Assembly (NCBI GenBank): GCA_020049855.1
Contig: JAGVLJ010000016.1
Span: forward strand, 5,603 to 69,602
Direction: 5' to 3'
DNA length: 64,000 nucleotides
DNA from: Bacteroidia bacterium
GTDB taxonomy: Bacteria > Bacteroidota > Bacteroidia > UKL13-3
In this document: in pieces, positions 14,902-24,693 of the stretch
Layout of the letters: each line of letters starts with the position of its first letter
Numbering within the stretch: position 1 is the stretch's first letter
The notes under the pieces: generated by a model
Databases searched by the model: none
Told to the model about the DNA's origin: nothing
What the model saw: the letters and a program-made list of their open reading frames with translations, nothing else
Program-made: the position numbers and the translations under genes

Positions 14902-15555
14902 GTGATGAGATTTTTTGTATTCCTGTTTAGTTTACTTCTAGTAAGTTTCACACCTGCCACTACTGCGGTAAAAATAGCCCGTCTAAAATACAATGGCGGA
15001 GGTGATTGGTATGCAAATAAAACTTCGCTACCAAACCTCATTCGCTTTTGCAATCAACAACTTAAAACCAATATACAAGGAGAAGAAGATATTGCAGAGG
15101 TCGGCAGCCCGGATATATTCAATTACCCGTTTGTGCATATGACAGGGCACGGAAATGTAGTTTTTTCTTCTTCCGAAGCAGATAACCTACGCAAATACCT
15201 GATGGCCGGAGGTTTTTTGCATATAGATGACAACTATGGGCTGGATAAATTTATACGAAGGGAAATGAAAAAAGTATTCCCCGAACTCAATTTTATAGAA
15301 TTACCTTTTAGTCACCCTATCTATCATCAGGCATTTCAATTTGCCAGTGGGCTGCCAAAAGTACACGAACATGATGGAAAACCAGCTCAGGGTTTTGCAT
15401 TAATTTATAATGGGCGGATGGTTTGTTTTTACAGCTACGAATGTGACTTAGGCAATGGCTGGGAAGATCAGGAGGTGTACAACGATCCTGAAAAAGTGAG
15501 GTTAAAAGCCTTGCAAATGGGAGCTAACCTTATTCAGTTTGCATTTACCCATTAA
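14902..15555 (+). CDS. DUF4159-domain secreted protein
   Basis: It has a signal peptide. LKYNGGGDWYAN...FVHMTGHGN...GGFLHIDDNYG is the conserved core of Bacteroidetes DUF4159 proteins (from memory). Confidence 0.5.
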   Translation: MMRFFVFLFSLLLVSFTPATTAVKIARLKYNGGGDWYANKTSLPNLIRFCNQQLKTNIQGEEDIAEVGSPDIFNYPFVHMTGHGNVVFSSSEADNLRKYLMAGGFLHIDDNYGLDKFIRREMKKVFPELNFIELPFSHPIYHQAFQFASGLPKVHEHDGKPAQGFALIYNGRMVCFYSYECDLGNGWEDQEVYNDPEKVRLKALQMGANLIQFAFTH

Positions 15556-16109
15556 TTAAATCTCGGATCGGGGGGAGAATTACTTAAAATAGCAAAATCA
15601 GTTCCCATCTTAGTTAAAATAGTTTTCCAAAGCATTTCAGGATTTGGATGAAAAATGTATGTCTTTTCAGCTTGGGTAACAAACCACGCCCGCTCTGTAA
15701 GTTCATCCTCTAATTGCCCTGCCGACCACCCGGAATATCCAATAAAAAATCGAATTTGGTTTTCCAAAAAAATTCCGCTTCTAATCCCATCTGCCACGGC
15801 TTCTATATCACCGCCCCAGAATATGCCAGGTTGAATTTGTACGGCATTGGTAGAATATTGCTGGCATGAATGAACAAAGTGAAGTGAATCCTGTTCCACC
15901 GGCCCCCCATAAAATAACCTAACTTTAATTCCGGTAAATTCAGGCAAAACATCGGCAAGATTTAAATTGGTAGGGCGATTGAGTACAAAACCTACTGCTC
16001 CGTTTGCAGCATACGAAGTTAGGTAAACCACTGTACGCTTAAAACTTGGATCTGTCAGGAAAGGGTCGGAAAGAAGAAACATCCCGGCCTTTGGTTTTAT
16101 TATTTCCAT
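15552..16109 (-). CDS. YqgE/AlgH-family protein (UPF0301/DUF179)
   Basis: The length is about 185 aa. GMFLLSDPFLTDPSFKRTVVYL...GGPVEQD...WGGDIE...GYSGWSAGQLEDEL is the canonical pattern of this family. Confidence 0.7.
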   Translation of the reverse strand: MEIIKPKAGMFLLSDPFLTDPSFKRTVVYLTSYAANGAVGFVLNRPTNLNLADVLPEFTGIKVRLFYGGPVEQDSLHFVHSCQQYSTNAVQIQPGIFWGGDIEAVADGIRSGIFLENQIRFFIGYSGWSAGQLEDELTERAWFVTQAEKTYIFHPNPEMLWKTILTKMGTDFAILSNSPPDPRFN

Positions 16110-16274: not shown

Positions 16275-16637
16275 ATGAAGATATTAATAGCTGAAGATGA
16301 GCAAATGCTGAAGAAGGCCGTAGAATTTAAACTTAAGAAGGATGGCCATGAAGTTTTTACAGCAGCAGATGGAAGAGAAGCATTGAGTCTTATCAAAGAG
16401 AATGCATTTGATATGATTATTACGGATATTATGATGCCGTTTGCATCAGGCTTGGAGATAATCAGCCATGTAAGGGCACAGGGATTTAAAATGCCCATCA
16501 TTGTAGTTTCATCTATTGGACTTGAAAATACCGTTCTGGAAGCATTTAAACTTGGAGCTGATGATTTTATTACCAAACCTTTCAGCCCAAATGAGTTATC
16601 AATGCGTGTAAATAGATTATTGTCCAAAATATTATAG
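16275..16637 (+). CDS. standalone response-regulator receiver (CheY-like REC) protein, first gene of a putative exopolysaccharide operon
   Basis: It reads ILIAEDEQM...D(52)MIITDIMMP...KLGADDFITKPF. There is an acidic pocket, a phospho-acceptor Asp and a conserved Lys. The protein is 120 aa with no output domain. Its TAG stop overlaps the GTG start of the next gene. Confidence 0.85.
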   Translation: MKILIAEDEQMLKKAVEFKLKKDGHEVFTAADGREALSLIKENAFDMIITDIMMPFASGLEIISHVRAQGFKMPIIVVSSIGLENTVLEAFKLGADDFITKPFSPNELSMRVNRLLSKIL

Positions 16638-18343
16638 TGAGAATTCAAGCATGTGTTACTACTCCCTTTTCGAATTTTGGGAGTAAGATTTTTTTATTTA
16701 TTTTTTGGGTTATGCTATCAGGCATCTCCTCTTTTGCACAGCGCATGCCTGATGTTGATTCAATGTATTTATCAGCCAAAAACATTGGTTTCAGGGGAGT
16801 TTATGACACGGCCCGAATGGAAATGGATACTGTGCTGCAATATGCCCCAAATTATTTAGATGCGCGAACTTTTATAGCTCGCACCTGGAGTTGGGAAAAT
16901 AAATTTGAAAAATCACGCGCACAACTAAAAATTGTACTGGATACCGACCCTAAAAATTACGAAGCACTTGATGCCTTAGTAGACGCATTCAGGTGGCCAA
17001 ACGAAATTGACACGGCATTAGCTATTTGTGAAAAAGCAATTGCCTTGTTTCCGGCCGATACCCTGTTTAAGTATAAAAAGCACGAAGTAATCAGGCAACA
17101 GCGAAATGTTAAGCTTACCACTAACCAACTCTTGTCAGACTCCTTTTATATGAAAGGACGTGCATTGGCTTTTACAGGGAAATATGAGGAGGGTCGTGTA
17201 TGGCTTGATTCTTCGATTAAACGAGACCCCTATTTTTTTGATGCGTATATTCTTAAAGCCCGCACGTTTAGCTGGCAAAAAAAATATGAAGAGGCTCGGC
17301 CTATTCTAAATTACGTTTTACTAAATGATACGCTCCCTTCAAGAAGAAAAGATGCTTATAGTGCGCTGGCTGATGTAGAAATGTATGCGTCTAAAAATAA
17401 AACATCCCGCAAAATTTGCGACACGGCATTGAGCCAATATAAAAAGGCAGTTGAATTTCATAAGAAAAAATCCATTACCCTTGCCAACGAAGATTTTTAC
17501 AAGGAAGCTATTCCCGAACTTCAACTTTATCTTGATTCTGTAAAAAACGATACCGCTTCCATCAAAATGATGGAAGATTTTAAATTCAAAAAATTACGTA
17601 ATTACGCTGGAGCAGGCTGGGTGCGCCAGATGTACAATCCCAAAACCACCTTCGCCCCTTGGGATTTTGGAAATATTGAATACGGACACCGCTTTAGAAA
17701 AGTTCAGTCAATAGGAAGAATAAACTATGCAAAAAGATTTGGGGAACAAGCACTGCAGTTTGAAGTGGATAACTATATTAAAATTTTCAGAGGCACTACC
17801 TTATTTACCAATACAGGAATCTCAAACAAAAATATCCTGTACCCGCGTTACCGTTTAGGTGGCGAGGTTTACCAAAACCTTTGGAGTAAATTCGATGTCT
17901 CGCTGGGGTATCATATACTATTCTATCAACCCGATACCATAAAAGAAACTTTTCATTTGATGGTTGGTTCCATTGGCTACTACTACAAAAAATGGTGGTT
18001 ATCCTACAGGCCGGTAATGGTTTTACAACCTTACGGAAAAGGTTCAACTACCCTGTCAAATACGGCTCAGGCCAGGTGGTTCCATAAATCAGCTTACGAT
18101 TACTTAACATTTATTTTTGCGTATGCAAACGGAGCGATTGGATTAAACAACCCTACTGCCATAGTTTTTGGAGAAAAAAATTTCGTGAAACTCCAAACAA
18201 TACGGTTTGGAATTGACTTTCAGCGAAGGCTTAACACCACCGTTTTTGGCGGATTGGGAGCATGGAGCGATTATGACGAGTATTCGGCCAGTAAATACCG
18301 ATACCGTTTTACACTTACACTCAACTTGAAAAAAGTTTTTTAA
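16637..18343 (+). CDS. TPR-repeat plus C-terminal beta-barrel outer-membrane protein (YaiO-like), putative exopolysaccharide export porin
   Basis: It has a signal peptide (…FLFIFWVMLSGISSFAQ). The N-terminal 300 aa or so is TPR-like helical repeats. The C-terminal 250 aa or so has amphipathic beta-strand patterns rich in Y/W/F and ends in a terminal Phe. This architecture parallels PgaA, BcsC and PelB. Confidence 0.6.
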   Translation: MRIQACVTTPFSNFGSKIFLFIFWVMLSGISSFAQRMPDVDSMYLSAKNIGFRGVYDTARMEMDTVLQYAPNYLDARTFIARTWSWENKFEKSRAQLKIVLDTDPKNYEALDALVDAFRWPNEIDTALAICEKAIALFPADTLFKYKKHEVIRQQRNVKLTTNQLLSDSFYMKGRALAFTGKYEEGRVWLDSSIKRDPYFFDAYILKARTFSWQKKYEEARPILNYVLLNDTLPSRRKDAYSALADVEMYASKNKTSRKICDTALSQYKKAVEFHKKKSITLANEDFYKEAIPELQLYLDSVKNDTASIKMMEDFKFKKLRNYAGAGWVRQMYNPKTTFAPWDFGNIEYGHRFRKVQSIGRINYAKRFGEQALQFEVDNYIKIFRGTTLFTNTGISNKNILYPRYRLGGEVYQNLWSKFDVSLGYHILFYQPDTIKETFHLMVGSIGYYYKKWWLSYRPVMVLQPYGKGSTTLSNTAQARWFHKSAYDYLTFIFAYANGAIGLNNPTAIVFGEKNFVKLQTIRFGIDFQRRLNTTVFGGLGAWSDYDEYSASKYRYRFTLTLNLKKVF

Positions 18344-18346
18344 AAG

Positions 18347-20167
18347 ATGAGCGTAAGATGTTATTTTCTTGTTTGGGTAGCACTCATTTTGTGCTTTGAG
18401 CAAAGAGTAGTTGCACAGAATTTCCCGAAAGAAATTATGTTAAAACCCGTATACTACAACGCCTCCATTGGTGAAAACATAAAAGTAGTTGCCAGAAAAT
18501 ATAAACTGAGTGAACGAACACTTGCCTCGCGAAACAGAATTCCTGCACACCAGCTGTTTAAAAAAGTAACGCCTATCATCATTGGTTACAGCCTGGTACC
18601 TGACAATGAACTTAGCAATCCCCCGGAAAATGCCTTTATAGTAGACGAAGAAACAGTAAAAATTTATTCAATCATTCCGGAAAATTTTATAGCTGACTCA
18701 ATAAGCATCTCCCCTTCCCTTTTTGCCAAATTGGTCATACAACCCGAAGAAATACTAGCTCCTGCTGCTGATATAACCCGCAAACCGCAACCAACCGAAG
18801 TGAAAAAGACGGAGACCGCGTCCTCAACCTCCCCCGCTAATCCGGCTCCGCTTACAGCAGGCGAATTAGCCAAAAGTGGTACTGATTATAAAGGAGATTT
18901 TGCACCCGATACCACCGAGGACACTGACCCCGCTATCAACAATATCTCCCCAGATAAACAAACCGGGACTATGGAAAGCTATTTTGCCGACCGTGTGAGA
19001 GAAATTGAAGAAAGTTCTATTGACTCAACCGATAGGGAAATTGAGTTTTTCGAATCACCGTCAGGTTGGTTTGCCCAAACGTACCGGGATCAACCTACCA
19101 TTATTCAGCGTGGATTGATTATTTTGTGTTTTTTTATATTTGGGAACATTACCCTTTTTGTTATTATAATAAGCAGCCGTATTTATAAAACCTACATTGA
19201 GATACGAAAAAAACGATTGATTGAAGTATATGAACCATTGCTGGCAAACTTATTATTTGGCGAATACGATACAGAGGAGCGCAGGATGCACGTGGTAAGG
19301 CGTATTAAAAAAAGGTATCTTGTAAATGAATTTAACAATGAGGTTTTTTTACAGGAACTGCTAAACCTGCACAAAAATTTTTCGGGCGATGTATGCGATG
19401 AAATACGCAATCTTTACCTTGAGTTTGATTTGCTCAAATTCAGCATGCGAAAGTTAAAAGCTTTTCCATGGGACGTGAAGATTAAAGGTATTCGAGAATT
19501 AACGCAAATGGATATAAAGGACGCTTATGATGAAATATTCAAATTTATTGACAGCAAAAATCCAATACTTCGACTTGAAACCCTGTTATCACTTATTCAG
19601 CTTAGCGAATCAGACCCACTGAAATTTCTTAGCAATACAAAAGCTAAAATGACCGGATGGCAGCAGGTAAATATTCTGGCCATTCTCTCTATTTTAAATA
19701 CAGACGATTTACCTGATTTCAAACGCTGGCTTAATTCCCCCAACGACTCGGTATCTTTATTTACTGTTCGAATGATTAATCACTTCAAGCAAATCGGTTC
19801 TGTAAATGCCATTATCCCAATGCTGGAAGATCCAAGAGAAGAAATACGTGAAGCCATTATTGATACCATAGGCAATTTAGAGCTATACGGATTTGCCGAT
19901 CAACTAATAGATACTTTCGGCAAAGAACAAGATCGGTTAAGGGTGAAAATACTTCAGGTAATGACCAAAATAAGTGATGACGACCAGATACCATTCTTTA
20001 AACAAGAACTTTTCAGCCCCAACTTTGCGATAGCACTCAATTCGGCCATAGCACTTGTAAAAACAGGGCCTAAAGGAAAAAGAGACCTGGAATTATTACT
20101 GGAATCGGCCGATGAACGAAGTTCAAAAATTATCAAACATGCACTCGATAAACGAATAGTAAAATAA
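18347..20167 (+). CDS. bitopic membrane protein with N-terminal secreted domain, Pro/acidic linker, one TM helix and cytoplasmic HEAT/armadillo-like repeats
   Basis: The signal peptide is MSVRCYFLVWVALILCFEQRVVAQ. A low-complexity PT/acidic linker follows, then a TM helix (GLIILCFFIFGNITLFVIIISS). The C-terminal 300 aa or so are repeated alpha-helical units (…EIREAIIDTIGNL…LRVKILQVMTKI…AIALNSAIALV…). Confidence 0.5.
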   Translation: MSVRCYFLVWVALILCFEQRVVAQNFPKEIMLKPVYYNASIGENIKVVARKYKLSERTLASRNRIPAHQLFKKVTPIIIGYSLVPDNELSNPPENAFIVDEETVKIYSIIPENFIADSISISPSLFAKLVIQPEEILAPAADITRKPQPTEVKKTETASSTSPANPAPLTAGELAKSGTDYKGDFAPDTTEDTDPAINNISPDKQTGTMESYFADRVREIEESSIDSTDREIEFFESPSGWFAQTYRDQPTIIQRGLIILCFFIFGNITLFVIIISSRIYKTYIEIRKKRLIEVYEPLLANLLFGEYDTEERRMHVVRRIKKRYLVNEFNNEVFLQELLNLHKNFSGDVCDEIRNLYLEFDLLKFSMRKLKAFPWDVKIKGIRELTQMDIKDAYDEIFKFIDSKNPILRLETLLSLIQLSESDPLKFLSNTKAKMTGWQQVNILAILSILNTDDLPDFKRWLNSPNDSVSLFTVRMINHFKQIGSVNAIIPMLEDPREEIREAIIDTIGNLELYGFADQLIDTFGKEQDRLRVKILQVMTKISDDDQIPFFKQELFSPNFAIALNSAIALVKTGPKGKRDLELLLESADERSSKIIKHALDKRIVK

Positions 20168-20168
20168 C

Positions 20169-21665
20169 ATGGATAAGTACTTAGAACTGTTAGGCGACTT
20201 TTTTGATTCATTCATTTTTTACTATGCCATCTCCTTGTGTTTCTCTTACTTTATGCTGGCTATTATTTCAGCCTTTGAGATGAGGCACTACATGAAGAAG
20301 AACAGTTTTATTGATTATCGTACCATTCTCAGTTCGCATTTGCAACCATCCATTTCACTCATAGCTCCAGCATATAACGAAGGAGCTAATATTGTTGAAA
20401 ACGTACGCTCACTTCTATCAATTCACTACGGGAACTATGAAGTAATAATTGTCAATGACGGAAGTAAGGACGATTCTATTGCTACATTGGTGCAAAACTA
20501 CGAGCTGGAAAAAGTAGACTATGCTATCAATGAACAACTGCATACTAAACCTGTAAGAGGAGTATATAAATCAAAAAATTCAGCCTTCAGCAAATTACTG
20601 GTAGTTGATAAAGAAAACGGAGGAAAGGCCGATGCATTAAATGTAGGGCTCAATATTTCACAAAGTGATTTGGTGGCTTGTGTAGATGTAGATTGCGTGA
20701 TTGAACAGGATGCCCTTGTAAAAATGGTTAAACCTTTTATTGAAGAAGAAACAAGAGTTATTGCCACGGGAGGTGTTGTGCGTATTGCCAATTCATGCGA
20801 AATAGAAAACGGTAAACTCATAAAAGTAAACCTACCTGATGAGCTACTTCCAAGAATTCAGGTTATTGAATACATTCGTGCATTTTTGATGGGACGTATG
20901 GCGTGGAGTAAATTAAACGGCCTTTTACTTATATCGGGGGCATTTGGATTATTTGATCGTGACATTGCCATTAAAAGTGGTGGATACAATCACAAAACAG
21001 TTGGCGAAGACATGGAACTGGTAGTGCGTATGCGTATTTGGTGCCATGAAAACAATATTAAATACCGGGTGGTTTATATTCCTGATCCTCTTTGCTGGAC
21101 CGAAGCCCCCAATAACGTAAAAATACTTGGCCGCCAACGAAACCGATGGGCCAGAGGTACTGCCGAAACATTGTGGTTTCACCGAAAAATATTCCTGAAC
21201 CCCAAATATGGCAAACTGGGAATTGTAAGTTACCCTTTCTGGCTTCTCTATGAGTGGCTTGCTCCTTTTATTGAATTTTTTGGATTATTGTTTTACATCA
21301 TTCTCGCTATTCTTGGATTCTCTACTTGGGAATTTTTTATCATGATTGTTAGTTTGATTTACGCCTTTGCAGTTATGATGTCGATATCCGCCATTTTGTT
21401 TGAAGAAATGTCCTATCACCAGTATAAAAATAAACGAGATATGTTCAGGATGATGGCTACTGCTTTAATTGAGCCAATTTTCTACCACCCTATGACGGTA
21501 AAATGGTCGCTGGAAGGCAATATTGACCTGTTAACAGGCAAGAAAAACTGGGGCGAGATGACAAGACAGGGATTAGGTAAAAAGAAAGTTCGAAAAGAAA
21601 CAACTTCAGCCAAACCTAAAGAAACTAAAACGGACATCCCTTCAGCAACTAATTCAGAATCGTAA
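20169..21665 (+). CDS. processive family-2 glycosyltransferase (PgaC/BcsA/NodC-like polysaccharide synthase)
   Basis: There are N-terminal TM helices. The GT-A motifs are IAPAYNE, VNDGSKDDS (D), DVDCV (DxD) and VGEDMEL (TED-like). The QRNRWARG (QxxRW) motif of processive beta-glycosyl synthases is present. C-terminal TM helices are followed by a Lys-rich tail. Confidence 0.8.
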   Translation: MDKYLELLGDFFDSFIFYYAISLCFSYFMLAIISAFEMRHYMKKNSFIDYRTILSSHLQPSISLIAPAYNEGANIVENVRSLLSIHYGNYEVIIVNDGSKDDSIATLVQNYELEKVDYAINEQLHTKPVRGVYKSKNSAFSKLLVVDKENGGKADALNVGLNISQSDLVACVDVDCVIEQDALVKMVKPFIEEETRVIATGGVVRIANSCEIENGKLIKVNLPDELLPRIQVIEYIRAFLMGRMAWSKLNGLLLISGAFGLFDRDIAIKSGGYNHKTVGEDMELVVRMRIWCHENNIKYRVVYIPDPLCWTEAPNNVKILGRQRNRWARGTAETLWFHRKIFLNPKYGKLGIVSYPFWLLYEWLAPFIEFFGLLFYIILAILGFSTWEFFIMIVSLIYAFAVMMSISAILFEEMSYHQYKNKRDMFRMMATALIEPIFYHPMTVKWSLEGNIDLLTGKKNWGEMTRQGLGKKKVRKETTSAKPKETKTDIPSATNSES

Positions 21666-22830
21666 TAATTTCTTTCCCCTGCCGTTTGCGGTGCTCATTT
21701 ATCGCAGTTCGGATAAGTGGAATATAATATTCCCAAAAAAATCGCTTCCGGTTTTCAAGTTCTATCTGCGAATAAAACATAGAACGAAAATTACGTATCC
21801 CCCGCAATTTTGACGACATCATTCCTATTTGATTATCACAAAAATCGGCTGAAAAATAATAATAATTCGAATCGCCCGAATGATGCTCAATTGATGCAAT
21901 GAATGTTTGGGGAATATGATAATAATTTAAAATGGAATCGCCCGACTTGTTTGTTTTCACAGAGAAAACAGACATTACGTTGTTATTGGCTCTTGCGTTA
22001 AGGGTAACAGCAAACCAAAAAGGGTATAAAATATTTTCGGGCAGGTTATATGATTTCTGATACTTCTCATCAGTGTATATAATGGGTATTGGAAAATTCA
22101 TATGCCGTTTCTCATCTAAAATAACAATTTTATCACTGGTATGAACATACACCAGACCGCCATCTCTAAAAGGCCATTTTCCTCCATGCTGCCTACGGTA
22201 AAGTTTCCAAACCCATGGAGGTAATTCTTTATTTTTTACCGTATCCAGCGATGAAAAATACCTCCCTACCCAACCTGTCCATTGCAAACCTAAAAGTTCT
22301 TCGCATTTTTGCCGCAGGGTGTAGGAAGTAGGTAAAGCATATAAACTGAATTCGGTAATGATGGTTTTTTTCTTTTCTACCATCTTTTTCAAAAGCTCGT
22401 AGTCGTTTTTATGCAATCCCCCATAAATTAACTCCGACCGTTCTTTATCATTCCCCTTTCTGTACCACTCGTTGTGATAAATTCCATAGGTGTCGGTATA
22501 ATAGGCCATTTCGTAATACGATGCCATACTATCCAAATCCTTGTCGCTGTAATCAGCTAAATCTCGTACATCAAACTGAAAATCTTCCAAGGGAAAGAAC
22601 CCCATATAGTCCTTGTCTATTTTGTATAAATCACCATTGGGTTTGGTAATTTTCATGTGATCCAGAATCCAGTTAAACGATCGGTGCTCAAGCCCCTCTT
22701 TTGTAAGTACCGTTTTATCAAGAATGAAAATTTTCATCGGATACTGGCTTTGAAACAACCAAATAACCCAGAGAATGAACGGGAATAATAAAATTACCAA
22801 TAAAATAATACGAACTGTTTTGCGTAGCAT
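21649..22830 (-). CDS. hypothetical membrane-anchored protein with large aromatic-rich extracytoplasmic domain
   Basis: The N-terminal TM anchor is IILLVILLFPFILWVIWLF. The domain of about 360 aa has no recognisable motif. It is convergent with the GT2 gene, and the two 3' ends overlap by 17 bp. Confidence 0.4.
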   Translation of the reverse strand: MLRKTVRIILLVILLFPFILWVIWLFQSQYPMKIFILDKTVLTKEGLEHRSFNWILDHMKITKPNGDLYKIDKDYMGFFPLEDFQFDVRDLADYSDKDLDSMASYYEMAYYTDTYGIYHNEWYRKGNDKERSELIYGGLHKNDYELLKKMVEKKKTIITEFSLYALPTSYTLRQKCEELLGLQWTGWVGRYFSSLDTVKNKELPPWVWKLYRRQHGGKWPFRDGGLVYVHTSDKIVILDEKRHMNFPIPIIYTDEKYQKSYNLPENILYPFWFAVTLNARANNNVMSVFSVKTNKSGDSILNYYHIPQTFIASIEHHSGDSNYYYFSADFCDNQIGMMSSKLRGIRNFRSMFYSQIELENRKRFFWEYYIPLIRTAINEHRKRQGKEIITILN

Positions 22831-22918: not shown

Positions 22919-23569
22919 ATGGAAATGAGTAATAAACATATTGCAGCACTACGTAAAGAATACCTGCTGAAAGAATTTGATGAAGGCCATTTGCTGGCCG
23001 ACCCTTACAACCAATTTAGGCTGTGGTTTAAAGAAGCCATTGAATCGGAGGTAAATGAACCAAATGCGATGATGCTTGCCACGGCTTCGCCAAACGGACA
23101 GCCACATGCACGCATTGTATTGCTAAAAGGTTTTGACCATGAAGGCCTGGTTTTTTTTACCAACTACCAAAGCGATAAGGGAGAACAGATAAAAGAAAAT
23201 AATCAAGTAGCTCTTACTTTTTTCTGGCCCGAACTGGAGCGGCAGGTTCGTATAGAAGGAACGGCAAAGCAAATTCACCCTGAAAAATCAGATGAATATT
23301 TTTATAGTCGCCCCATCGGCAGTCAAATTGGTGCTCATGTGTCGCCCCAAAGCAAAGTAATTGTAAACCGTAAGTTTTTAGAGGATCGTGTACGCGAATT
23401 TGAAAAATTATTTTCTGAACAACCTTTACTACGACCCGAACACTGGGGAGGATATGTGGTAAACCCTCATTTATTTGAATTTTGGCAAGGACGCAGCAGC
23501 AGGCTACACGATCGTTTTTTATTTACATGCAAAGGCTCAATCTGGCAAATAGAACGGATAGCCCCTTAA
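22919..23569 (+). CDS. pdxH: pyridoxamine 5'-phosphate oxidase
   Basis: MMLATASPNGQPHARIVLLKG...FFTNYQSDKG...ALTFFWPELERQVRIEG...EYFYSRPIGSQIGAHVSPQS...EFWQGRSSRLHDRFLF is the full PdxH signature, including the C-terminal motif. Confidence 0.85.
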   Translation: MEMSNKHIAALRKEYLLKEFDEGHLLADPYNQFRLWFKEAIESEVNEPNAMMLATASPNGQPHARIVLLKGFDHEGLVFFTNYQSDKGEQIKENNQVALTFFWPELERQVRIEGTAKQIHPEKSDEYFYSRPIGSQIGAHVSPQSKVIVNRKFLEDRVREFEKLFSEQPLLRPEHWGGYVVNPHLFEFWQGRSSRLHDRFLFTCKGSIWQIERIAP

Positions 23570-24693
23570 TCCTTAACTGGAACAGGTACCCCCTGTTTAG
23601 TAATATAAAAAACATGGTTTAGGTATTGCACCTTAGCCAACCCAAAGCTAAAAGGTGACACTCCGTCAAATTCGGGCTGAATAACCACCCTCCCCTTTTT
23701 ATTCATAAAACCCCATCGCCCGTGCTTACGAATAGCGGCCATTCCATTTGAAAAACCTTGCGCCTCATCTAGTGTGAGCGGGACAAAAATAGCTCCTTTA
23801 CTATCAATAAAACCCCATTTTTTATTTACCATCACCGCTGCATACCCTTCCGAAAACGACTCGGCATAATCGTATTCTGGTTTAATAATTACTCTTTGTT
23901 TAAGGTTTATATACCCTATTTTATCCTTAATACGTACAGCTATTAATCCCTCGGCATAATCGGAAGCAAAAGTGTATTTAGGTTTTATCAAAACTTTGCC
24001 CCGCTGATTTACAAAACCGGCTAATCCGCCCAAATCAATGCGAGCAACCCCGCCCGAAAACGGATAGATATAATCATATATAGCAGGCAACAAAAATTTA
24101 CCGTGTGCATCAATCAATCCGTATTTATTTTTCATTTTTACCCGAGCCACACTATCTACAAAATCTCCGGCATCAAAAAACTGGCAAGGAATAACCAGAG
24201 TTCCGGTTTTATCCATGTACCCGAATTTAAAAACCAACATAGCGATGCGGCCTTTAATTTTTACATCCTCCTGCACACTTACCACAGCAAGCCCGTTATG
24301 AAATAATTGTGAATCATAAAAACCCGTGGGAACCTCAAGCACTTTAGCACCTGTTTTGTCAATATAATAGCGCTCGTTTTGCTCCCCTTGTATGCGTGCC
24401 CACCCCTCAGAGAATGGTGATGCACTTTGGCAGGTAAGTGGGCCAATCACTGTTTTACCTGTAGGGTCAATATAAAATTTCTTGCCCTCCCGCTCCACTA
24501 AAGCTAGGCCTTCGCTAAACTCATCGGCATACGAATACACTGTGTCGATAACCAAATGGCCTGTTTCATTTACATAGCCGTATTTTTTATTCCACTCAAA
24601 AGGGGTTAGGTTATTTCCCTGTGCCACTAAACGCCCCGACAGCATGAGCAAGGCAGTTGTAACAAGAAGAATGTATTTTTTGATATATCTCAA
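23566..24693 (-). CDS. WG-repeat (KWG) containing secreted protein
   Basis: It has a signal peptide and many tandem repeats of about 30 aa of the form K(Y/W)G(Y/F)I(D/N)..G..VI.P.YD.A..FS.G.A.V. Confidence 0.7.
   Translation of the reverse strand: MRYIKKYILLVTTALLMLSGRLVAQGNNLTPFEWNKKYGYVNETGHLVIDTVYSYADEFSEGLALVEREGKKFYIDPTGKTVIGPLTCQSASPFSEGWARIQGEQNERYYIDKTGAKVLEVPTGFYDSQLFHNGLAVVSVQEDVKIKGRIAMLVFKFGYMDKTGTLVIPCQFFDAGDFVDSVARVKMKNKYGLIDAHGKFLLPAIYDYIYPFSGGVARIDLGGLAGFVNQRGKVLIKPKYTFASDYAEGLIAVRIKDKIGYINLKQRVIIKPEYDYAESFSEGYAAVMVNKKWGFIDSKGAIFVPLTLDEAQGFSNGMAAIRKHGRWGFMNKKGRVVIQPEFDGVSPFSFGLAKVQYLNHVFYITKQGVPVPVKD

Follow-up and report, generated by a model that had tools for sequence, protein, structure and literature searches.

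What kind of machine is encoded by an operon in which a putative polysaccharide synthase stands beside a lone response regulator receiver (REC) domain and a HEAT-repeat membrane protein, and how might it be switched? The question arises from a stretch of 64,000 nucleotides (nt) of contig JAGVLJ010000016.1 of a Bacteroidia bacterium (assembly GCA_020049855.1), which is called the window in the following. Four plus-strand genes in it encode a REC protein, a protein with tetratricopeptide repeats (TPR) and a YaiO-family barrel (gene 2), a HEAT-repeat protein (gene 3) and a family 2 glycosyltransferase (GT2; gene 4), and a fifth gene for a protein of 393 amino acids (aa) converges on them (Table 1). 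The family to which the locus belongs, as an ordinary member, is large and conserved, occurs in Bacteroidota and Ignavibacteria and has apparently not been studied. We consider it probable that it forms a synthase-dependent glycan export system which is switched by a phosphorelay through the REC and the HEAT protein. An initial annotation of the window had already read the operon as an exopolysaccharide system, and this is supported by the grouping of the GT2, by the YaiO hidden Markov models (HMMs) and by the synteny in relatives.

Synthase and outer-membrane protein

Synthase-dependent systems are recognised by four components, namely a membrane synthase, a receptor for cyclic di-GMP (c-di-GMP), a periplasmic modifying enzyme and a TPR domain with an outer-membrane pore (PMC7112194). 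Gene 4 appears to provide the first of them, an inner-membrane processive synthase, its processivity being deduced from the sequence. It is matched by the Pfam families Glycos_transf_2, Glyco_tranf_2_3, Glyco_trans_2_3 and Chitin_synth_2. The top NCBIfam match is PgaC_IcaA (TIGR03937) with 141.6 bits (E 3e-41), and other matches are the XrtG-associated GT (124.6 bits) and NodC (48 bits). Two GT2 relatives score 138.4 and 127.2 bits against PgaC_IcaA, and all three scores are below the cutoff of 422.3. By these models gene 4 is best described as PgaC-like and not as a PgaC ortholog. CelA (BcsA, TIGR03030) reaches 35.7 bits at a cutoff of 699.1, and neither a PilZ domain nor BcsB was detected.

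The D, DxD, ED and QRNRW motifs which the initial annotation had named are present as D97, D173xD175, E280-D281 and Q323RNRW327, and all of them are invariant across 17 relatives (alignment A2). In the same alignment H440, P441, G450, N451, W461 and R466 of the C-terminal tail are invariant as well. Hydropathy gives one N-terminal transmembrane (TM) helix and a C-terminal hydrophobic bundle, and the best solved relative, the Chlorella virus hyaluronan synthase (PDB: 7sp6), aligns over aa 61-388, including QxxRW and the membrane region that follows it. The full-length family matches, the invariant motifs, the alignment with hyaluronan synthase and the C-terminal TM bundle together indicate that gene 4 groups with the processive, channel-forming GT2 synthases, as had been proposed. 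It is very improbable that gene 4 is instead a non-processive lipid or polyprenol glycosyltransferase of the DPM1, GtrB or ArnC type and that the operon is no polymer synthase. ArnC-type, PglI and PpgS models of NCBIfam do match, weakly and only in the N-terminal GT-A half, whereas the full-length matches are those to PgaC/IcaA, NodC, CelA, chitin synthase and hyaluronan synthase. Moreover, QRNRW and ED are invariant, and the C-terminal TM bundle follows the motif as it does in channel-forming synthases.

As a processive enzyme at the inner membrane, the GT2 would polymerise a UDP-sugar and thread the chain through its own TM channel, judging from its family membership. The sugar would probably be an N-acetylhexosamine, since the nearest named relatives of the GT2 are PgaC/IcaA.

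The TPR domain and the outer-membrane pore appear to be joined in the single protein of gene 2. It scores 105.8 bits against PF19413 (cutoff 23.9) and 85.6 bits against TIGR04390 (cutoff 32), so that both curated cutoffs for YaiO membership are exceeded, and several TPR families match over aa 38-310. Thus an N-terminal TPR array followed by a C-terminal barrel ending in Phe, the architecture first suggested, is also what the models predict. All 31 homologs of gene 2 that were scanned match PF19413 and TPR, 29 of the 31 end in Phe, and the family profile picks up E. coli YaiO too. A search by sequence returned no solved structure of the YaiO family. A TPR-barrel fusion encoded beside a processive GT2 characterises the exporters of the Pga, Bcs, Pel, Alg and Nfr systems (PMC7112194; PMC8669469). 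By analogy with the architecture of PgaA, BcsC, PelB and NfrA, the chain would pass the periplasm along the TPR array and leave through the YaiO barrel.

Table 1. Features of the operon and its neighbourhood, in window positions
Feature	Position	Strand	Length	Parts and remarks	Source
Secreted DUF4159 protein	14902-15555	+		Directly upstream of the operon	
AlgH/YqgE-like protein	15552-16109	-		Directly upstream of the operon; convergent with the DUF4159 gene, 4-nt overlap	
REC	16275-16637	+	120 aa	Single domain	ORF list
Gene 2 (TPR + YaiO)	16637-18343	+	568 aa	GTG start; signal peptide ~aa 16-34; TPR array ~aa 38-310; YaiO barrel domain ~aa 320-568; terminal Phe	ORF list
Gene 3 (HEAT)	18347-20167	+	606 aa	Signal peptide aa 1-24; LysM-like beta-alpha-alpha-beta aa 30-83 (predicted); Pro/acidic disordered linker aa 132-206; long helix from ~aa 251; TM segment aa 257-275 (hydropathy); HEAT/ARM solenoid aa 310-605	ORF list
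Gene 4 (GT2)	20169-21665	+	498 aa	N-terminal TM aa 15-33; GT-A domain; C-terminal TM bundle ~aa 350-415; conserved cytoplasmic tail aa 435-470	ORF list
Fifth gene	21649-22830	-	393 aa	Convergent with the GT2 gene	ORF list
Repeat protein	23566-24693	-	375 aa	Secreted; many short repeats with a WGFID / YGLID motif	

Gene packing and conservation in relatives

The four open reading frames (ORFs) of the operon lie on the same strand, with coordinates and junctions (-1, +3 and +1 nt) exactly as first annotated. The TAG stop of the REC gene (16635-16637) and the GTG start of gene 2 (16637-16639) can be read from the sequence to share a G, and this GTG is the sole in-frame start preceding the signal peptide. 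Gene 3 follows gene 2 after 3 nt and gene 4 follows gene 3 after 1 nt. The tight packing is not due to chance: in most of 76 loci of relatives the HEAT and GT2 genes meet at -4 or -1 nt, and the association of the genes is conserved, both across orders of Bacteroidota and in Ignavibacteria.

GT2 relatives are encoded in more than 588 species genomes, a number that is a lower bound and comes from a scan with alignment A2. The alignment of the HEAT core holds no conserved stretch of 7-10 columns, and the genome scan was made with the GT2 alignment instead. For the comparison of gene order we took the best 80 of these more than 588 relatives, picked by GT2 similarity only and with flanks of 8 kb, and searched the ORFs of each locus with the window proteins and with an HMM of the HEAT core. 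The 80 loci belong to Sphingobacteriales (Pedobacter, Mucilaginibacter, Daejeonella), Chitinophagales (Chitinophaga, Lacibacter, Flavisolibacter, Sediminibacterium), Cytophagales (Ohtaekwangia, Dyadobacter, Emticicia, Imperialibacter) and Flavobacteriales (Flavobacterium, Salegentibacter), and they also include metagenome-assembled genomes (MAGs) of Bacteroidales.

The HEAT gene lies directly upstream of the GT2 gene and on the same strand in all 75 loci whose upstream sequence is long enough, and 72 of 74 loci have a single-domain REC. Among the 41 loci which have at least 6 kb on both sides, here called fully flanked, the REC and the HEAT gene were found in all 41, TPR-YaiO in 34, a homolog of the 393-aa protein in 17 and a large REC-containing protein (hybrid kinase) in 18. 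The exact order of the window, REC-YaiO-HEAT-GT2, occurs in 8 of 61 loci. More often the loci have REC-HEAT-GT2 and, nearby, a separate pair formed by the YaiO gene and the gene of the 393-aa protein; in 12 of the 17 loci with a 393-aa homolog the two genes are directly adjacent. The invariant unit is therefore REC-HEAT-GT2, and the barrel gene is mobile in position. Of the four-gene synteny which the initial annotation had anticipated, this near-constant unit stands, while the barrel gene shifts its place and is found in 34 of the 41 loci.

Since the loci were picked by their GT2, circularity was checked with three HEAT-family members chosen regardless of the GT2. The same GT2 family is encoded immediately downstream in all three (E 1e-220 or better). 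One of the three, from an Ignavibacteria MAG, carries the full set, in the order histidine kinase-Hpt gene, two REC genes, YaiO, HEAT and GT2 genes and a convergent homolog of the 393-aa protein (E 1e-156).

In the loci L087 (5831-6868) and L088 (10838-12256) of distant relatives, extra conserved-looking ORFs stand in or beside the operon. One of them encodes a secreted protein of 345 aa between the YaiO and HEAT genes, the other a protein of 472 aa, and neither has a Pfam match.

The interval first annotated holds all four genes of the operon, while the conserved fifth gene was overlooked and lies outside it. The 3' ends of this gene and of gene 4 overlap by 17 nt (21649-21665). There is thus no space for a terminator and the transcripts of the two strands must overlap. 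In relatives the 3' overlap between the GT2 gene and the gene of the 393-aa protein amounts to 4-7 nt (L001 11289-11292, L044, L078).

The 393-aa protein has at least 186 homologs with 38-91% identity, all of them unnamed. It has no match in Pfam or NCBIfam, for Pfam even at E up to 10. In a structure model with a mean predicted local distance difference test (pLDDT) score of 90.7, the N-terminus consists of basic residues and then a TM helix; an alpha/beta domain comes next, then a region rich in beta structure, and a helix forms the C-terminus. The protein is accordingly predicted to have a signal anchor and a periplasmic GATase1/ThuA/GIFT-like domain. The structural relatives of the model are STM3548 (14.0), ThuA-like proteins (13.5), OST48 (13.4; WBP1 11.4), the N-domain of IFT52 (12.3) and the exopolysaccharide enzymes Agd3 (12.5) and PelA (9.5), and the middle domains of GH42 enzymes are matched too. 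The GIFT domain groups OST48, IFT52 and the gliding protein GldG, and sugar binding has been proposed for it. The invariant residues of the family are mostly Trp, Tyr, Phe, Asp and Glu. A glutamine amidotransferase was ruled out, as no Cys, and hence no catalytic one, is invariant. Homology to YbcH was considered as well and gave no signal with the profile of the family. In the weakest step of the mechanism proposed here, the 393-aa protein might serve in the periplasm as a scaffold or in the handling of the glycan, where other systems have YbcH or BcsB.

As to the periplasmic modifying enzyme, none is recognisable in the window, the 393-aa protein being without a catalytic Cys, and relatives have an LtaS/OpgB-like membrane transferase (Pfam: PF00884) after the GT2. 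It is fused to the GT2 in 8 of the 80 loci and encoded by a separate gene in 20 of 55. Among NCBIfam models, LtaS and phosphoglycerol transferase match this transferase best, all far below their cutoffs. BcsG decorates cellulose, and we take the LtaS/OpgB-like transferase to belong to the same class of periplasmic glycan-decorating enzymes. The eight fusions (L031 7995-11492 and seven others) are 1141-1198 aa long, with the multi-TM LtaS/sulfatase-family domain at the C-terminus, which suggests that both activities may work together.

The same partner bears on another reading, in which the product would be a periplasmic or wall-associated glycan, similar to osmoregulated glucans or associated with the septum, and the YaiO barrel would serve for anchoring or uptake. 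The LtaS/OpgB-like protein resembles the phosphoglycerol transferase of periplasmic glucans; SPOR and LysM domains, which occur in the HEAT family, bind peptidoglycan, and one GT2 has a SPOR domain. Furthermore, the barrel is small, its pore is only predicted, and its gene is not nearby in 7 of the 41 fully flanked loci. These points are set against the exporter signature of a TPR-barrel protein with a processive GT2 (PMC7112194; PMC8669469) and against a barrel gene that is present in 34 of the 41 loci and lies inside the operon in some, the window included. In addition, the GT2 is far nearer to PgaC/IcaA than to other named families in the NCBIfam scan. We regard a periplasmic product as improbable, and export across the outer membrane through the YaiO barrel remains our preferred reading.

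Directly upstream of the operon stand the genes of a DUF4159 protein and an AlgH/YqgE-like protein. Both were tried as parts of the system and rejected: apart from the closest relative (L001/L002) they are not conserved in the loci compared, and for this reason they are probably unrelated neighbours. The 375-aa repeat protein downstream looks, by eye, like a WG-type protein. No Rfam family reached its gathering score anywhere in the window.

Receiver, HEAT protein and proposed control of the synthase

The remaining component of a synthase-dependent system, a c-di-GMP regulatory domain or co-polymerase, was not found, and the REC and HEAT proteins hold its position. Neither PilZ, GGDEF, a GGDEF I-site, MshEN nor another c-di-GMP family was detected in the five proteins with Pfam and NCBIfam. 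A stand-alone receiver in the place where other systems have a c-di-GMP receptor, as the initial annotation had put it, agrees with this absence and with the REC in 72 of 74 loci. According to a review of cyclic-dinucleotide enzymes, GGDEF homologs are absent or very few in Bacteroidetes (PMC7288161).

The REC (Pfam: PF00072, Response_reg, E 1.5e-28) is a single domain without an output domain. Its acceptor Asp, acidic pocket, Ser/Thr and Lys can be assigned to D51, D8, S79 and K101, accompanied by F98. In 79 REC orthologs beside the same operon, D51 and S/T79 are present in all 79 and K101 and D8 in 78 each. Judging by these positions, the REC has all residues that phosphorylation requires. 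Having neither a DNA-binding nor an enzymatic output, it must act via protein contacts. The kinases that adjoin the loci of relatives are hybrid proteins of the type HisKA-HATPase-REC-Hpt, with or without PAS or CHASE3 domains, an architecture that would be expected of kinases feeding a terminal receiver. In a distant metagenomic relative, REC-HEAT-GT2 is followed by a hybrid kinase and then by a separate Hpt gene.

The candidate partner of the REC is the HEAT protein. HEAT_2 matches its C-terminal half in Pfam (E 7.7e-15). The AlphaFold model, built on 70 sequences, has a mean pLDDT of 80.4, with values of 85-90 for aa 30-83 and above 90 over aa 250-600, and it agrees with the topology first suggested, in which a secreted N-domain, a linker and one TM helix precede cytoplasmic HEAT repeats. 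Foldseek against the PDB returned only solenoids of the alphaRep, armadillo, importin and HEAT types. The HEAT solenoid is cytoplasmic (N-out, C-in), as indicated by the basic residues after the TM helix and by the periplasmic nature of the LysM and SPOR domains. In an exhaustive search without a profile, the family numbered 1,521 cluster representatives at E ≤ 0.001. Their conserved part is always aa ~245-604, i.e. the TM helix and the HEAT solenoid, while the N-terminal part ranges from nothing to ~650 residues.

The N-domain of gene 3 has no Pfam match even at E up to 10. It aligns with the LysM repeats of the family member P0132 at 29% identity, and on the basis of this alignment and of the predicted fold it is assigned as a divergent LysM-like domain. 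Among 20 long members of the HEAT family that were scanned, six have LysM and seven SPOR domains, and the member in locus L055 has SPOR as well. The LysM-like domain, or LysM or SPOR in relatives, would anchor the complex on peptidoglycan or on the growing glycan. SPOR, which binds septal peptidoglycan, is found at the C-terminus of one GT2 and in many HEAT-family proteins (L052 7956-10154; L055 5656-8001). Some versions of the machine might thus be located at the division site.

We propose that the switch is phosphorylation and not c-di-GMP. A hybrid kinase-Hpt, presumably encoded elsewhere in the genome (adjacent to the locus in many relatives), would phosphorylate D51 of the REC. The phosphorylated REC would dock on the HEAT solenoid, on the conserved C-terminal tail of the GT2 or on both, and turn the synthase on or off. 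REC and HEAT would thus take the place of PilZ, PgaD, PelD or MshEN, as their linkage and the logic of their domains suggest. A more specific version is held only tentatively, at somewhat less than even credence. In it the phosphorelay acts on the synthase post-translationally, the phosphorylated REC docks on HEAT as an adaptor and activates the GT2, the GIFT/GATase1-like protein is a new periplasmic subunit, and YaiO represents a new class of export pore.

The same machinery could also be built with a REC that does not gate the synthase. The receiver would then be a phosphate sink or a branch of a phosphorelay with its output elsewhere, in transcription or motility, and the HEAT protein a constitutive co-polymerase or anchor like PgaD or BcsB. 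The link of the REC to the HEAT protein or the GT2 is deduced and no kinase lies near it in the window; some loci have two or three receivers (L087, L088), as in phosphate-sink arrangements, and an anchoring role of the HEAT protein is suggested by LysM and SPOR domains. On the other hand, the REC is present in 72 of 74 loci, in most cases with translational coupling to the operon gene that follows, and so close a linkage in several orders is more easily understood for a dedicated subunit than for a generic sink. Alpha-solenoids in the cytoplasm are moreover typical docking surfaces for proteins, and an anchor needs no ~300 conserved cytoplasmic residues. We therefore consider a non-gating REC rather unlikely, somewhat less so than a periplasmic product, and continue with the phosphorelay-switched exporter.

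Several observations weigh against this reading. The contacts between REC and HEAT and between HEAT and GT2 are ones that we infer from linkage and domain logic, as is the direction of regulation, and no fusion of the REC with the HEAT protein or with the GT2 was seen. Among the 20 long HEAT-family members there was neither a REC-HEAT nor a HEAT-GT2 fusion, the N-domains being LysM, SPOR or unassigned. Within the 64-kb window there is no histidine kinase or Hpt gene, so that the REC would have to receive its input from elsewhere, no recognisable modification enzyme or hydrolase and no LtaS/sulfatase-like gene. The PgaC_IcaA score of gene 4 is a third of the equivalog cutoff of TIGR03937 and does not give the polymer. 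The YaiO domain comprises only ~250 residues, and that its pore would let a glycan pass is an assumption. In the fully flanked loci, the barrel gene was not found within 6-8 kb in 7 of 41 (~17%) and the homolog of the 393-aa protein in 24 of 41. Finally, these percentages describe the closer relatives, i.e. the best-scoring 80 of more than 588.

The possible significance of the system lies in its control and in its spread. To our knowledge, c-di-GMP is the switch of all five well-studied synthase-dependent systems (cellulose, poly-N-acetylglucosamine (PNAG), alginate, Pel and Nfr). Bacteroidota, a dominant phylum of soil, water, plant and gut communities, are mostly without c-di-GMP, and the control of their matrix polysaccharides is poorly understood. 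If our reading is correct, phosphorelay switching would be a second general solution, beside c-di-GMP, for the control of synthase-dependent matrix production, and it would offer a testable mechanism of biofilm control for Bacteroidota. It would also give a first function to the YaiO barrel family, including the cryptic yaiO cluster of E. coli, and to a protein family without a Pfam model. The gene set is present in the more than 588 species genomes, including culturable Flavobacterium, Pedobacter, Mucilaginibacter, Chitinophaga and Dyadobacter.

Comparison with known systems

A full-text literature search found no description of this gene set and no link between YaiO and polysaccharide export, in line with the earlier impression that no system of such composition has been characterised. 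The closest architecture is that of NfrB/YbcH/NfrA of E. coli (PMC8669469). In both systems the genes overlap tightly and encode a processive GT2 of the inner membrane that bears DxD, (T)ED and QxxRW motifs (NfrB; gene 4), a signal-anchored periplasmic protein of obscure function (YbcH; the 393-aa protein) and an outer-membrane protein consisting of a signal peptide, TPR and a C-terminal barrel (NfrA; gene 2). NfrB, however, is switched by c-di-GMP via a fused MshEN domain, whereas the window has no MshEN and a separate REC and HEAT protein instead. The barrels also differ, being of the YaiO family in the window and NfrA_C in NfrA. NfrA is matched in its TPR part only, the GT2 profile barely detects NfrB, and YbcH is unmatched. 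At the level of sequence, homology between the parts of the two systems is limited to the GT-A fold and the TPR repeats.

Compared with the Pga system, the window shares the best named relative of its GT2, PgaC/IcaA, and an exporter made of TPR and a barrel, as is PgaA. In both, a small or bitopic inner-membrane partner stands beside the synthase; that of Pga, PgaD, has a part in regulation. In contrast to Pga, neither a PgaB-type deacetylase/hydrolase (CE4, GH153) nor PgaD was found among the window proteins and those flanking ORFs that were examined, the barrel is from another family and the window has no c-di-GMP domain.

In the Pel system, PelB is an exporter with TPR and a barrel, the transferase is a soluble GT4 enzyme and the receptor PelD binds c-di-GMP. 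PelE, a membrane-anchored TPR-like alpha-solenoid, is thought to bridge PelD and the glycosyltransferase. In our proposal the HEAT protein would bridge REC and GT2 in a similar way; PelD, PelE, PelF and PelG are presumably not homologous to the window proteins.

YaiO-family barrels had been named in the initial annotation as neighbours of PgaC-like synthases, and E. coli K-12 indeed encodes yaiO beside the GT2 gene yaiP. Its genes yaiS-yaiP-yaiX-yaiO are co-directional (locus L085, NC_000913.3 380069-384616). As in the window, a barrel of this family is encoded together with a membrane GT2, and in the GT-A domain YaiP and the window GT2 share 28% identity (E 2e-15). E. coli YaiO differs in having no TPR domain, and the cluster has no REC, HEAT or 393-aa protein; it contains a PIG-L deacetylase (yaiS) and an acyltransferase (yaiX, split by IS2). 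It looks like a cryptic polysaccharide system that was disrupted in K-12, and it independently links YaiO barrels to GT2 enzymes.

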